64,000 nt of DNA from Eledone cirrhosa (taxonomy: Eukaryota): the NCBI GenBank assembly GCA_964016885.1, contig OZ024760.1, forward strand, positions 22,196,001-22,260,000, read 5' to 3'. This document shows positions 2,460-57,816 of this stretch, one piece after another (position 1 is the stretch's first letter; the number at the start of each line of letters is the position of its first letter). The translations under genes and the position numbers were made by a program. The notes below the pieces were generated by a model. That model had not been told where the DNA came from and ran no database searches. It saw nothing but the letters and a program-made list of their open reading frames with translations.

Positions 2460-2648
2460 TAGGAAAATGTTTAACCACGACGAGCTCAAGCCGTTTCGAC
2501 GGCTATTTCTGTCCAGAAATAGCCGCCGAAACGGCTTGAGCTCTGCCGTCGGGGTTAAACATTTTCCTATTATCCACTCTACTACCCTAAGTATTGAGTA
2601 CTCTGGTGCGTTATGGTCCATATGGTTCCTTACCACACCTCTTTCGTT
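2460..2648 (+). mobile_element. Fold-back PLE-pLTR-like element, family F1 (half hammerhead)
   Basis: Inverted arms around tc at ~2512; right arm reads GAAA-cggc..gccg-TC; TA-rich tracts on both sides; 7 related copies in the window. Confidence 0.75.
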
Positions 2649-3011
2649 ATATATATATATATATATATATATATATATATATATATATATATATACATAT
2701 ATATATGTATGTATGATATTATATATATATGATTATATTAAGTATAAATCGAAGTTGCAACTGCCATATTTATATATATTTGAAAATGTATGAAATTCTT
2801 GGTACAGTTAGGTATATTTAATTAAAACAAGGAAAATAATGTCTTTCGCCAGCGACGAATGCGAGAAAGTTCTCCAGGAAAGTTAAGCAGGAATCTTTAA
2901 AAATTTTCCCACCGAAGTTAACAAAGAACTTACTAGATCTACCAAATCATGATATTATAACATTAAATCAAATTGTTTAGAACTACATGTGAAGTCATTC
3001 TTTTCTTTTTT

Positions 3012-3850
3012 TAAAAATAATATGTTGCTGAATGAGGATAAGTTCGAGTTAATCAACTTTGGAAGAAAGGATGTCCTGAAACTACCATACTCTCTTCCTT
3101 CAGGTGAAACTCTCATGGCATCCAACAACGTAGAGACTTGGGAGTAATTGTGGACAACAACATAAGCTGGGCCACTCATATAAACAGCAAAGTTGACATG
3201 GCCCAGAGAATGTGTTCCTGGATTCTCAGAACCTTCCAGTCGAGAAATATCCATATTGTTATCCTTCTCTTCTCCACTTTTGCCCGACCCCACCTTGAAT
3301 ACTGTTGTCCACTGTGGTCTCCACACACGAAACAAAGTATCATGAAAGTTGAAGTACCTCAAAGGTCAATTACAAAAAAGATAGCTGGCATGACAGGCCT
3401 TGACTATTGGAGTCGATTAGAAAAACTCAACCTTTACGCTACATTATCTGCATGATGTGGAAAATTTTCCATCAGCATTGCCCAAATGATGTTGGCATCA
3501 CCTTTAAACTACACCCAAAGCTTGGGCCCCGTGCTATCTGCCAACGACAAAAATCTCGCTGGCATCTCATAACAACAATACGGCACAATTATTTCACCTC
3601 AATTGGCCCCGCTCTCTTTAACATTACACCAAAACACATTAAAACTGAAACAGACCCCATCAAGTTCAAGAAGACTTTGGACAAATTCCTTCAAGAAATC
3701 CCGGATAAGCCTCCTACACCCGGATATGCCTCCGTAAACAATAACTCCCTACCATGGTGCCCAAATCCTGATTTGAAAGACTTCGCCAGGTGGTGCTATT
3801 AAGCTAGACATGGCCTGGGCCAACACTGGCCGAAACCTATCAAAGTTAAG
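3012..3850 (+). mobile_element. CR1/L2-type LINE, 3' fragment of ORF2 (RT C-terminus), frameshifted
   Basis: RDLGVIVDNNISW..HI, LFSTFARPHLEYCCPLWSP and LDYWSRLEKLNLY are typical CR1/L2 ORF2 C-terminal motifs. Confidence 0.9.
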
Positions 3851-4009
3851 CTATATATATATATATATATATATATATATATATATATATATATATATAT
3901 ATATATATATATATATATATATATATATGTATAGTTAACAGATGAAACAAACAAAACAGGAGGTAATTTTACACAGTTATATTAGATTCATGCTTGATGC
4001 AAGTGGAGG

Positions 4010-4052
4010 AGACATCAACATTTCGGCGGACAGAAGTCCTTCTTCAGGAAAG
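4010..4052 (-). ncRNA. Degenerate hammerhead ribozyme
   Basis: Minus strand: ttc-CTGAAGA-a ggac ttct gtcc gcc-GAAA-tg-TT-ga; stems I and III are weak. Confidence 0.4.
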
Positions 4053-5259
4053 ATCGGATAAGGAGAGAACCGATAGATGTAAGAGTCGTGTAAGAAGGTT
4101 AGGGAAGGAAGTATGCGCGCGTGTGTGTGTGTGTGTCTGAGAGCTGATGACAAAAAAAACGTGCTTTTTCCTCCTCTTTGTCTTTAATTTTCACGTATAT
4201 TTTTCCTTTAATTTCTCCCTCAAATTATTTTCTCTCTTATTCGATTTTACAATGAAGGACTAGCATGAGAAACGTTAACGCTATTTTTTCCACATATTTT
4301 ATGCGTGATATCAATTTTAGTGCATTGATCTCTTGCATATGTATATATATATATATATATATATATATATATATATATATATATATATATATATATTCCT
4401 GCGAGACATAAAAGGCGACAGAAATATTTATACCGGGAAAGGCATCCGGTCGTAAATCTCTGCCTCAACATCTCTCATCGAATCCGTCATTATGGAAAAA
4501 CGGCATAAATAATTGATGATGCAACACACACACACACATACTCACACACACACACACACACACACGCACACACAGACTCACACACACACAAACACACATA
4601 CACACACACACAGAGGCTCACACACACAAATACACACAAACACACAGACACACACATACAGAGGCTCACTTACACAGAAGTACAGACACACACACACACA
4701 CACACACACACACACACACACACAAACAAATATACATGTTTATAATGTGTGTATGTATGCATGTATATATGTATGTATATATATATATATATATGTATGT
4801 ATGCATGTATGTATATATGTATATAATGTGTGTATGTAAGCATGTATGTATATATATGTATATAACGTGTGTATGTATGTATGCATGTATATATATGTAT
4901 ATAACGTGTGTATGTATGTATGCATGTATATATATGTATATAATATGTGTATGTATGCATGTATATATGTATGTATGTATATATATATGTATGTATGTAT
5001 ATATGTATATAACGTGTGTATGTATGTATGCATGTATATATATATGTATATAACGTGTGTATGTATGTAAGCATGTATGTATATATGTATATAACGTGTG
5101 TATGTATGTATGCATGTATATATATGTATATAATGTGTGTATGTATGCATGTATATGAAGGTATTGTGTTATGAGCAGGACGGAAGTTGTTTGATGTGAT
5201 ATAGACAAAGTCGTATGGCGTTCATGATATATTTCAGTTACATCAAAATGTCTTCCTTG

Positions 5260-55500: not shown

Positions 55501-56205
55501 CGAAAAAGAAAAAAAGAAAAAAAAGAAAAAAAGAAAAAAAGAAAAAAAGAAAAAAAGAAAAAAAGAAAAAAAGAAAAAAAGAAAAAAGACGAAGTCGAAG
55601 ATGAAGAAGAATACAAAGAAGAAAAAGAAGAGAAGAAGAAGAAAACGAAGAAGAAAGAAGTCGAAGAAGTAGACGGAGAAGAAGAGGAGGAATAAGAAGG
55701 AAAAGAAGGAGAAAAGGAAGAAGGAAAAGAAGGAAAAGAAAAAGAAGAAGGAAAAGAAGGAGAAAAGGAAGAAGGAAAAGAAGGAAAAGAAGAAGAAAAA
55801 GAAGAAGGAAAAGAAGGAGAAAAGGAAGAAGGAAAAGAAGGAAAAGAAGGAAAAGAAGGAAAAGAAAAAGATGAAAAAGAAAAAGAAGGAAGAAAAGACG
55901 AAGAAGAAGAAAAAGAAAAGTAAGAATGAAAAGAAGTCGATGAAAGAAGAAGAAAAAGAAAACGAAGGCGAAGACGAAGAAGAAAAAGAAGAAGAAGAAG
56001 AAGAAGAAAGTAGACGAAAAAGAAAAAAGACGAAGTGGAAGGAGGAAGATAAGAGGAAGACGAAAGAAGCCATATGTGAAGAGAGAGACATTTGCCGAAG
56101 AACCGATACAAAGCTTTTACAGTTTAATGCAGCTGGCATTTAATCAAAGATGTCCGACTCCTCCAAATAATTACATATTGGTTTCCTTTCAGTAGATAAT
56201 ACAAC

Positions 56206-56718
56206 AAATGTTCGGTTAAATAAAGTTGTAATGGAGGAAGGTGGAATAGGCGGTGGAGCGTCGGAGAGAAATGTTCGGTTAAATAAAGTTGTAATGGAGG
56301 AAGGTGGAATAGGCGGTGGAGCGTCGGAAAGAAATGTTCGGTTAAATAAAGTTGTAATGGAGAAAGGTAGAATAGGCGGTGGAGCGTCGGAAAGAAATGT
56401 TCGGTTAAGTAAAGTTGTAATGGAGGAAGGTGGAATAGGCGGTGGAGCGTCGGAGAGAAATGTTCGGTTAAATAAAGTTGTAATGGAGGAAGGTGGAATA
56501 GGCGGTGGAGCGTCGGAAAGAAATGTTCGGTTAAATAAAGTTGTAATGGAGAAAGGTAGAATAGGCGGTGGAGCGTCGGAAAGAAATGTTCGGTTAAATA
56601 AAGTTGTAATGGAGAAAGGTAGAATAGGCGGTGGAGCGTCGGAAAGAAATGTTCGGTTAAATAAAGTTGTAATAGAGAAAGGTAGAATAGGCGGTGGAGC
56701 GTCGGAGATAAATGTTCG
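56206..56718. repeat. 63-bp minisatellite, 8 copies
   Basis: aaatgttcggttaaataaagttgtaatggaggaaggtggaataggcggtggagcgtcggarag periodicity. Confidence 0.95.
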
Positions 56719-56814
56719 ATTATATCATAACTATAATAAAGGGTGGAGTGCTGGACTGAGGCCGTTTTATATTTTGTTTTCCCGTTAGTAAAATAAGTTA
56801 GATTACTTTGATAA

Positions 56815-57355
56815 ATAATTGTTTCTACATTTGGCACAAGGCCAGCAATTATTCCAGTTCATTACTGGTTCTTTATTTTATCGACCCCGTAAGGATGAAA
56901 GGCAAAGTTAACCTCGGCGGGATTTGAACTCAGACTATAAAGGGGCGTAACTCTATGCTGCAAAGTATGGCGTCCGACCTTCTACCAATACTGCCAATCC
57001 CTCGCCCTTTGACTAAATAATGAATGAATATTACATAATTTATCTACTAAATTTCGTAGCTGTTGATTAAACATAAATATTCATCATCACCGTTTTACGT
57101 CCGTTCTTCCACGCTAGCATGGGTTAGACGGGTTGTCCTGTTGTGGGCAGTGTCTGGTCGGCTGACCATGCCTTGCTCATACAGGAACTGATTTGGCTTG
57201 ATCTTATATATAATTGTTTCTACTTTTGGCACAAGGTCAGCAAATATCCAGTGTATTACTGGTACTTTATTTTATCGACCCCGTAAAGATGAAAGGCAAA
57301 GTTAACCTCGGCGGGATTTGAACTCAGAATGGCAAGGGCCGTAATTCTATGCGTC
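56815..57355 (-). mobile_element. Two SINE family A copies (56815-57000 and 57210-57355)
   Basis: Reverse-complement core and boxes. Confidence 0.87.
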
Positions 57356-57590
57356 AATATATATATTCTTATATATAATGATTGCTTATTTTAAGATTCA
57401 CTTCTTTAAAAAATTTCAAATGTCAACACTTTCAGTTAGCGTCCGTTATATCATAACATTTATTACATCGCTTATATAAAGCGTAGAAATGCTACAAAGA
57501 TAGCTTATAAAATAGAGTGAAGACCCTTAAAAGACAAAAAAAGAGGTTGCTATTGGCCAGAATTGAACCCCGTATATATACATATATATA

Positions 57591-57816
57591 TAGGAACGAG
57601 TAGGACCCCGACGGCTGAGCTCAAGCCGTTTCGACGGCTAATTCTGGACTAACAAATTTTTATTTTTTATTTTTTTTAGTCCAGAATTAGCCGTCGAAAC
57701 GGCTTGAGCTCAGCCGTCGGGGACCTACTCGTTCCTATTACGCACTCTACTACACTAAGTATTGAGTACATTGGTGCGTTATGGTCCACTTGGTTCCTTA
57801 TCACATTTCCTTCGTT
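57591..57816 (+). mobile_element. Fold-back element, family F1
   Basis: ~62-bp near-perfect arms around a T-rich spacer; (TA)n flanks. Confidence 0.8.

Follow-up and report, generated by a model that had tools for sequence, protein, structure and literature searches.

Fold-back repeats in (TA)n runs of an Eledone cirrhosa contig as very probable 3' stubs of a Hydra-clade Penelope-like retrotransposon with a bulged tail hairpin

INTRODUCTION

F1 is a family of short repeats that lie in (TA)n runs of a 64-kilobase (kb) stretch of Eledone cirrhosa DNA (assembly GCA_964016885.1, contig OZ024760.1, positions 22,196,001 to 22,260,000; hereafter the window, in whose numbering coordinates are given). 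An F1 long arm consists of the 3' half of a hammerhead ribozyme and a 3' tail, and in most copies it is faced by an inverted, tail-less copy of itself. What is F1, and how does the same head-to-head layout come about at different sites? We conclude that the F1 copies are very probably dead 3' stubs of a Hydra-clade, endonuclease-bearing Penelope-like retrotransposon (PLE), made by a two-site priming route that we propose below.

The fold-back layout, with its inverted partner, one-sided tail and (TA)n target, is already described for PLEs (PMC3846280, PMC8557442). PLE insertions bear an inverted, 5'-truncated copy beside the 5' end and a tail of 30-40 base pairs (bp) at one end, and several PLE clades prefer (TA)n (PMC8557442). 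Palindromes at inverted PLE junctions have been read as self-priming (Arkhipova et al. 2013, PMC3846280), and hammerheads of truncated PLEs lie 100-700 bp from one another on opposite strands (Cervera and de la Pena 2014, PMC4209133). With a purified PLE protein, each strand of the target is nicked and extended, and synthesis begins at two RNA positions, one on either side of the tail (Frangieh et al. 2024, PMC11167929). The genome of Octopus vulgaris contains 190 PLE families, which account for 6.83% of its sequence (PMC13282606).

RESULTS

Anatomy of the F1 copies

With three copies as queries, blastn recovers exactly seven F1 long arms in the window (80.7-94.3% identity, E<=4.5e-24; Table 1) and, besides these, only matches of up to 18 bp. 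All seven copies retain the hammerhead 3' half and the tail hairpin described below, and all are flanked by TA-rich runs, which are short on one side of copy 3. CTGANGA, the other half of the hammerhead core, occurs in none of them, with 23 such sites elsewhere in the window. Six of the seven copies have an inverted arm of ~37-67 bp; the exception is the copy at 37294 (copy 5), which shows no inverted arm beyond a possible 4-bp one. The inverted arm ends at the same CCTA/TA point and runs into (TA)n in five of the six fold-back copies, and the sixth (37484) ends at approximately the same place in diverged form. Folding z-scores (40 shuffles each) range from -8.7 to -30.7 for the fold-back copies versus 0.9 and 0.2 for the non-inverted copy 5. 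An inverted-repeat scan of the window was swamped by (TA)n.

These results bear out the original prediction, which was made from the sequence alone, in its count of seven copies, the inverted 5' side of six of them, the hammerhead 3' half without its CUGANGA partner and the arm end at TAGGAA that runs into (TA)n. Its element length of ~190 bp gives way to a measured range of 143-229 bp, and the palindromic loop sequence holds for a part of the family: TGAGCTCA is present only in the copies at 14791, 31779 and 57590, while the others vary around a GAGCTC core.

Rfam returns no match at E<=10 for the F1 arm. This blank is uninformative because Rfam gives nothing useful even on two complete hammerheads of the window, with no hammerhead match for one and Hammerhead_3 only at E 3.3 for the other. 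Over the whole window, none of the best 150 of 611 Rfam matches reaches the gathering score, and most are microsatellite-driven microRNA matches.

Subfamilies and junctions

Over ~134 columns of the long arms, copies 2, 3 and 7 (subfamily A) show 4-8 differences and copies 1, 4 and 5 (subfamily B) 10-12, and copy 6 (subfamily C) stands 27-33 differences away from the remaining copies. The inverted arm of every fold-back copy is nearest to the subfamily of its own long arm, and the inversion therefore arose at least three times independently, in keeping with the earlier proposal that inversions arise anew. The two arms of a fold-back copy differ by 1-9 substitutions, and no variant was seen that is common to the inverted arms yet absent from the long arms. 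Both arms of copy 4 read TCAAAC at a point where TTAAA stands in copies 1 and 5. The F1 inversions are not one inherited structure. Their junctions differ between copies, as had been predicted, but only in part: copies 1 (2459) and 4 (35269) have identical junction letters (TTTCTG/TCCAG), and copies 3 (31779) and 7 (57590) both turn within the same A/T run.

F1 ends in public reads

Four public runs from three studies (X1, X4, X5 and X17) were aligned to the long arm of copy 3 without its inverted arm. X1 and X4 are from organism A, and X5 is labelled as another organism. F1 is high in copy number, and its two ends in (TA)n are fixed. It is present in 22,529 contigs of X1 and in 25,490 of the 12,467,656 reads of X17, and each end is found in all four runs. 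The outer tail end passes into (TA)n before 31775 (9936 reads in X17, 425 contigs in X1, 19 in X4 and 4 in X5), and the inner end does so before 31859, at the ATAGGAA point (3916, 134, 11 and 3, respectively). The tail between the two ends spans ~78 nucleotides (nt).

What lies beyond the 5' limit of the window copies? The summed depth of X1 over the copy 3 reference, which is not a copy number, stands at 4.25 million at 31893, 1.0 million at 31916 and 0.12 million at 31923. The drop suggests strong truncation, with contributions from subfamily divergence and an edge effect. Loose ends extend behind 31923 in two contigs of X5 and 46 of X1 (a mixed consensus with an agreement of 0.57), and behind 31928 in one contig of X5 and in four of X4 that are alike in their first part. 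On the element strand they read GGCTA or CGGCTA, which is able to pair with the TAGCCG that precedes GAAA. In one X5 contig, the pairing strand is directly preceded by GAAGA-T, that is, by the last five letters of a CUGAAGA core and an extra nucleotide; an extra nucleotide after the core is typical of PLE hammerheads (PMC4209133). The loose ends thus show the 5' strand of stem II. On evidence that is good but thin, stem II appears to be long in the more extended F1 copies and to have a U-rich apex, at or just below which the window copies stop.

The reads also contain opposite-strand joints that link 31820-31882 to 31906-31923, with arms that are very unequal in reach (14 of 15 listed joints, none supported by more than 54 reads). 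Peaks of molecule ends at 31912 and 31923 in X17 were discarded as not biological, given that 31909-31912 reads AATT and is probably a library enzyme site. As a separate observation, changes on the plus strand over reference positions 31695-31934 are skewed, with A>G at 11 places versus T>C at 1 in X1, and at 16 versus 3 in X17. The skew exceeds the expectation from the base counts (A 50, T 27), and many of the changes are subfamily differences.

The tail hairpin in the window

The tail hairpin takes the form [AG]CTC, a short paired inner stem, a 2-nt bulge T[TAC] and GAG[TC], then RC. A descriptor of this form gives 15 matches in the window, 12 of them with an inner stem of at least 2 bp, versus means of 0.41 and 0.03 in 100 controls; this count is partly circular because the descriptor was drawn from these sequences and six of the matches are F1. 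Relative to the hairpin, the tail-less arm stops 4-5 nt upstream in five F1 copies, and three sister copies have their stop at -5, +1 and +1. The arm-end script left F1 copy 6 unresolved and called family E at +12, which by eye lies near -3.

The sister copies belong to at least four further hammerhead-bearing families that share the F1 layout in the window, several of them as fold-backs. Their ~150-nt units do not align with F1 (local scores of 13-28 versus 77-199 within families), and a complete CUGANGA core is kept at 47694, 58955, 32277 and 1365. At the junction of family D, a second palindrome of 62 nt is enclosed (58857-58918), which is either one fold-back nested in another or an apex that later lost sequence on one side.

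The tail hairpin in metagenome loci and published elements

Is the hairpin found behind Hydra-type hammerheads outside the window? Metagenome contigs were scanned with a Hydra-type hammerhead core pattern that does not include the hairpin, which gave 70 matches at 69 loci. After four exact duplicates were dropped, 43 of 66 matches close stems III and I. Among these 43, the hairpin stands at +47 to +60 in 17, (TA)n is reached at +34 to +59 in 12, and neither feature is present in 14. By comparison, the hairpin occurs in none of the 23 non-closed matches and in 69 of 8600 background windows (0.8%). Ten of the 12 tail-less loci diverge from their nearest tailed relative 3-5 nt before the hairpin, and the other two at -10 and -14. 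The upstream part is no longer than 77 bases in 9 of the 12 tail-less loci versus none of 16 tailed loci, a pattern that assembly breaks at fold-backs would produce.

Across 23 distinct hairpins, the three inner positions on which the descriptor sets no condition can pair in 21, 19 and 19 cases. The third of these pairs occurs in four paired forms, with 16 Watson-Crick pairs observed versus 8.0 in shuffled sequences, an excess that is not a true probability because the sequences are related. Among published elements, the supplement of Craig et al. (PMC8557442) was inspected by eye. The exact hairpin is present in two of its six novel Hydra consensus sequences (Hydra-2_Amil and Hydra-2_Ajap), and a variant of it in Hydra-1_Amil and Hydra-1_Crog. 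Hydra-1_Obim and Hydra-1_Ajap have no hairpin and end at a TA-rich site ~35 nt past the hammerhead.

F1 itself has no significant nucleotide match among the 69 metagenome loci (best E 0.26), and F1-specific patterns have none in the metagenome contigs or in viral contigs. The F1 words gagctcagccg and ccgtcgaaac do not occur in the PMC8557442 supplement, in which the 3' end of Naiad_Obim looks unlike F1, and F1 words were not found in the short supplement of the Octopus vulgaris repeat paper (PMC13282606).

Two side observations concern the metagenome loci. At L048:60-340 (and in L068), the fold-back junction contains three short repeats of the hammerhead's own sequence, which suggests repeated template slips before joining. 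L029, L046 and L069 are GC-rich and have closed type I hammerheads with no tail hairpin or (TA)n; they are probably non-PLE microbial hammerheads.

Endonuclease frames linked to the hairpin

Three metagenome loci (L035, L045 and L049) carry an open reading frame (ORF) for reverse transcriptase (RT) and endonuclease upstream of the hammerhead and hairpin. The L035 frame of 733 amino acids contains RWK, DKT, YRDD, CxCx5C and YIG, and RWK, DKT and CxCx5C are motifs named for the Hydra clade. The frame runs uninterrupted between two hammerheads at L035:130-2590, with a hairpin after each, and L035 is a candidate intact element. A PDB sequence search with the L035 ORF gave no match at E<=1, and Pfam recognised none of four long Hydra-type ORFs.

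With these Hydra-type ORFs as queries, tblastn finds one clear match in the window, at 38486-38746 (E 3.5e-12 to 7.2e-14), and BLASTP of this fragment gives 33 of 88 identical residues (E 4e-18). The fragment belongs to a 5'-truncated Hydra-clade PLE that is a sister of F1 and differs from it in sequence (Table 1). Because the endonuclease fragment and the hairpin lie in one (TA)n-bounded element, a sister family in this genome physically joins the hairpin to a Hydra-type ORF. Pfam detects no RT or GIY-YIG domain in 150 window fragments (146 of the 150 longest of 259, and four shorter ones near hammerheads), and a motif scan of the window detects neither; both blanks are uninformative because both methods missed the endonuclease fragment later found by tblastn.

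Table 1. Coordinates of F1 copies and related elements in the window
Element	Position	Strand	Arm in blastn (start or range)	Features
F1 copy 1, subfamily B	2459-2650	+	2513	inverted arm 2459-2511; GAAA at 2528; tail hairpin 2576-2601; tail to 2650; (TA)n on both sides
F1 copy 2, subfamily A	14791-14963	+	14827	inverted arm 14791-14827; long arm from ~14827; tail hairpin 14889-14914
F1 copy 3, subfamily A	31779-31998	-	31779-31919 (-)	long arm 31931-31779; tail hairpin 31853-31828; inverted arm 31935-31998; turn in A/T run at stem II apex
F1 copy 4, subfamily B	35269-35452	+	35315	inverted arm 35269-35311; tail hairpin 35378-35403; junction letters as in copy 1
F1 copy 5, subfamily B	37294-37436	-	37294-37429 (-)	at most a 4-bp GACT/AGTC turn; tail hairpin 37363-37338; (TA)n on both sides
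F1 copy 6, subfamily C, most diverged	37484-37655	+	37528	inverted arm 37484-37525; tail hairpin 37585-37610 with G-T wobble in outer stem
F1 copy 7, subfamily A	57590-57818	+	57678	inverted arm 57590-57656; T-rich turn; long arm; tail hairpin 57744-57769
Sister element, 5'-truncated Hydra-clade PLE	38482-39388	+		endonuclease C-terminal fragment 38486-38746; long 3' untranslated region (UTR); decayed hammerhead ~39157-39201; bulged tail hairpin 39251-39284; between two (TA)n runs
Sister family B	32270-32392	+		complete hammerhead core at 32277; tail hairpin 32342-32362; ends in (TA)n; relative at 1365-1467
Sister family C	47502-47822	+		fold-back; complete hammerhead core at 47694; tail hairpin 47801-47822
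Sister family D	58670-59054	-		fold-back; complete hammerhead 58955 (+) on tail-less arm; tail hairpin starts 58750 (-)
Sister family E	19078-19317	-		fold-back of decayed hammerhead; tail hairpin starts 19141 (-); GCTC/GAGC outer stem
Further hammerhead-bearing stretch	35118-35236			F1-like layout
Further hammerhead-bearing stretch	14564-14650			F1-like layout

Other features of the window

Motifs that resemble the tail hairpin, with no hammerhead seen upstream, lie at 18374-18401 (+), 1047-1073 (-), 28494 (+) and 51816 (+), and (TA)n closes the two at 18374 and 28494. A small hairpin of another type (TTGAGTTT..AACTCAAT) stands before (TA)n at 30042-30354, 14690-14750 and 28540-28565, in one case after a long inverted repeat, and is possibly a second tail element. 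Possible hammerhead cores at 4047 (-), 37931 (+) and 15901 (-) are without the bulged hairpin and perhaps belong to other PLE clades. Other inverted repeats adjoin (TA)n at 18787-18938, 46355-46484, 58366-58557 and 38041-38441. The last has short TACGAGG ends and looks like a mariner-type miniature inverted-repeat transposable element (MITE); that at 46355 is a perfect fold-back within sequence that resembles a short interspersed element (SINE). The SINE-like repeat recurs at 2257-2360, 11395-12188, 15000-15240 and 39560-39680, with a 202-bp tandem array at 11395-12188, and resembles MetaSINE. Together with the microsatellite load, a SINE-like repeat suggests an octopus as the host.

No host gene was identified by Pfam in the window fragments. 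A BRSK KA1 match at 43972-44145 (-) was rejected as a host gene, being below the Pfam cutoff, with no clean exon and an interrupted frame. A C2H2 zinc finger match at 27826-27996 (-) is likewise below the cutoff and in an interrupted frame.

DISCUSSION

How would a retrotransposon leave such stubs? We propose that the RT-endonuclease makes a nick in each strand of a (TA)n run, as the purified PLE protein suggests (PMC11167929); (TA)n is its own reverse complement, and both 3' ends would therefore be equivalent primers. Copying would start at the outer tail end and at an inner RNA site ~5 nt 5' of the hairpin, the two ends that are observed, and the bulged hairpin probably positions the enzyme. 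Copying would then stop no more than ~30 nt upstream of GAAA, at the U-rich stem II apex, as is seen in the window and in part in the reads, and with a stop at this apex the CUGANGA half is lost. In the last step, the products would join head to head, with the tailed arm long and the inverted, tail-less arm shorter. We lean slightly toward a wider reading in which Hydra-clade PLEs share the conserved bulged hairpin, a structure kept across distant animal hosts and apparently undescribed, as an RT-endonuclease recognition element that would fix the inner start 3-5 nt upstream; the long, U-capped stem II of F1 would act as a near-absolute roadblock and turn almost every insertion into a short perfect hairpin. 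The truncation near stem II that the original prediction contained is supported. The TAGGAA end that it ascribed to TA-microhomology joining is better explained by a defined RT start site just 5' of the conserved tail hairpin. PLE origin is supported, but 'non-autonomous' overstates the case, as the copies look like dead-on-arrival truncations of a longer element. Longer copies do exist, as anticipated, and the final five letters of the core are visible in a single contig; no ORF is seen on F1.

By which route are the two arms joined? Where the turn is a short palindrome, two independent complementary DNAs (cDNAs) joined at a short microhomology give the same junction as one cDNA that snaps back on itself. 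We give the two-cDNA route an even chance. Snap-back, the route originally predicted, is a close though less likely rival: a tail-primed cDNA would stall at the stem II apex, fold back, copy itself and then be cut or joined at a TA-like site before the hairpin. In all six fold-backs the tailed arm reaches as far 5' as the tail-less arm or further, clearly so in copies 2, 4 and 6. Moreover, the turn of copies 3 and 7 lies in an A/T run that corresponds to a small natural apex palindrome suggested by the X4 and X5 loose ends, the 4-bp turn of copy 5 is anchored at the apex, and self-priming is the published reading of junction palindromes (PMC3846280). However, self-copying cannot give the tail-less arm sequence that is absent from the tailed arm. 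At L048, which is near-identical to L068, the tail-less arm has the whole core and the tailed arm stops in loop II, and the opposite-strand joints of unequal reach in the reads also fit snap-back poorly; later deletion could explain either. Snap-back further needs a separate reason for the fixed stop point. It is thus not established as the route, given that L048 and the unequal joints fit two cDNAs better and the F1 junctions fit either. Both may occur, subsequent deletion across the hairpin apex may account for some of the uneven junctions, and a route other than these two is unlikely.

Could the fold-back be inherited rather than made anew, with a few fold-back masters being transcribed and re-inserted together with their junction as a self-propagating non-autonomous mini-element? 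Such descent would account for the junction letters of copies 1 and 4, where a 12-nt deletion between two TTTC repeats derives copy 4 from a copy-1-type junction, for the junction type of copies 3 and 7, and for nearly all aligned read sequence stopping near the apex. We consider it improbable, because there are three subfamilies, each with its own matching arms, and no inverted-arm variant is absent from the long arms. The TCAAAC of copy 4 stands in both arms against TTAAA in copies 1 and 5, the same layout recurs in unrelated families, and a duplex of 40-65 bp would be a poor RT template. That F1 is short, high-copy, palindromic and TA-flanked could also point to a DNA element targeting TA, such as a fold-back transposon, a Helitron-type element or a MITE, the last being what the original prediction had set against its own reading. 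This is highly improbable, as the inverted repeat is internal rather than terminal, the two ends are not complementary, the junctions differ, copy 5 has no inversion, and the tail hairpin and hammerhead half are common to ORF-bearing PLEs. Palindromes are a known source of assembly trouble, which could make the fold-backs sequencing or assembly artefacts; the substitutions between the arms and the tail-less end in (TA)n in four of four runs from three studies make this barely conceivable.

As very probable stubs of a Hydra-clade PLE, the F1 copies share with that clade the (TA)n target, a hammerhead close to the 3' end (with a CUGAAGAU core in several elements of the clade) and, in part of the clade, the bulged tail hairpin (PMC8557442). 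F1 is unlike Hydra-1_Obim in sequence; its stem II seems to enclose ~40-55 nt versus loops of 3-10 nt in published Hydra hammerheads, and its stem III is longer. The head-to-head inverted partner, palindromic junction and one-arm tail are those of complex PLE insertions (PMC3846280; Craig et al. 2021, PMC8557442), but the truncation of F1 is extreme and concentrated at one RNA structure. Poseidon PAc of the green anole likewise has two RT start sites that bracket the tail and an AT-rich target, and in that system both target strands are nicked and extended and initiation occurs at a stem-loop (PMC11167929). PAc belongs to another clade, and its stem-loop is described as AC-rich. Dispersed minimal hammerheads and retrozymes resemble F1 in opposite-strand hammerheads, palindromic loop III, long stem II and the extra nucleotide after position 9 (PMC4209133; bioRxiv 10.64898/2026.07.22.740005). 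However, non-LTR (long terminal repeat) retrozymes are tandem repeats with complete hammerheads, whereas F1 copies are single or inverted and cannot self-cleave in cis because half of the hammerhead core is missing. With no CTGANGA in any copy and no tandem F1 array in the window, F1 was rejected as a non-LTR retrozyme.

Several observations weigh against the Hydra-clade assignment and the proposed route. No ORF is seen attached to F1 itself, and the clade call therefore rests on the shared hairpin, the hammerhead style and the (TA)n target. The core letters come from one contig, of X5, which is labelled as another organism; its recovered loose end of 30 letters stops short of the first two core letters (CU) and of the stem I 5' strand, and organism A gives partial support through the four X4 contigs and the mixed 46-contig consensus of X1 (agreement 0.57). 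The further 5' reach of the tailed arm in copies 2, 4 and 6 is what snap-back predicts, and the F1 tail of ~78 nt exceeds the published 30-40 bp. The hairpin descriptor was drawn from the window and slightly relaxed once its strict form had matched 16 of 69 loci anywhere in 170 nt, and the 43 closed loci are related families rather than independent tests, with L035 counted twice and L017 without an inner stem. One Naiad 3' UTR also fits the descriptor, and the hairpin may therefore not be Hydra-specific.

Fold-back stubs are a known by-product of PLE integration, and what F1 adds is the tail hairpin. It is apparently undescribed: no description was found in the literature searched, whose incomplete coverage of subscription journals leaves absence from print not secure, and the words 'hairpin', 'stem-loop' and 'bulge' are absent from the main text of PMC8557442. 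The reason for the one-sided PLE tail and the RNA feature read by the enzyme are open questions (PMC8557442; PMC11167929), and a short motif whose distance to the inner end is constant offers a direct mutational test. The tail hairpin is also a means of recognising ORF-less Hydra-clade stubs that Pfam and Rfam miss. For the host, fold-back copies would form stable hairpins if transcribed, and a dense family of such 37-67 bp duplexes could then feed editing or small-RNA pathways.

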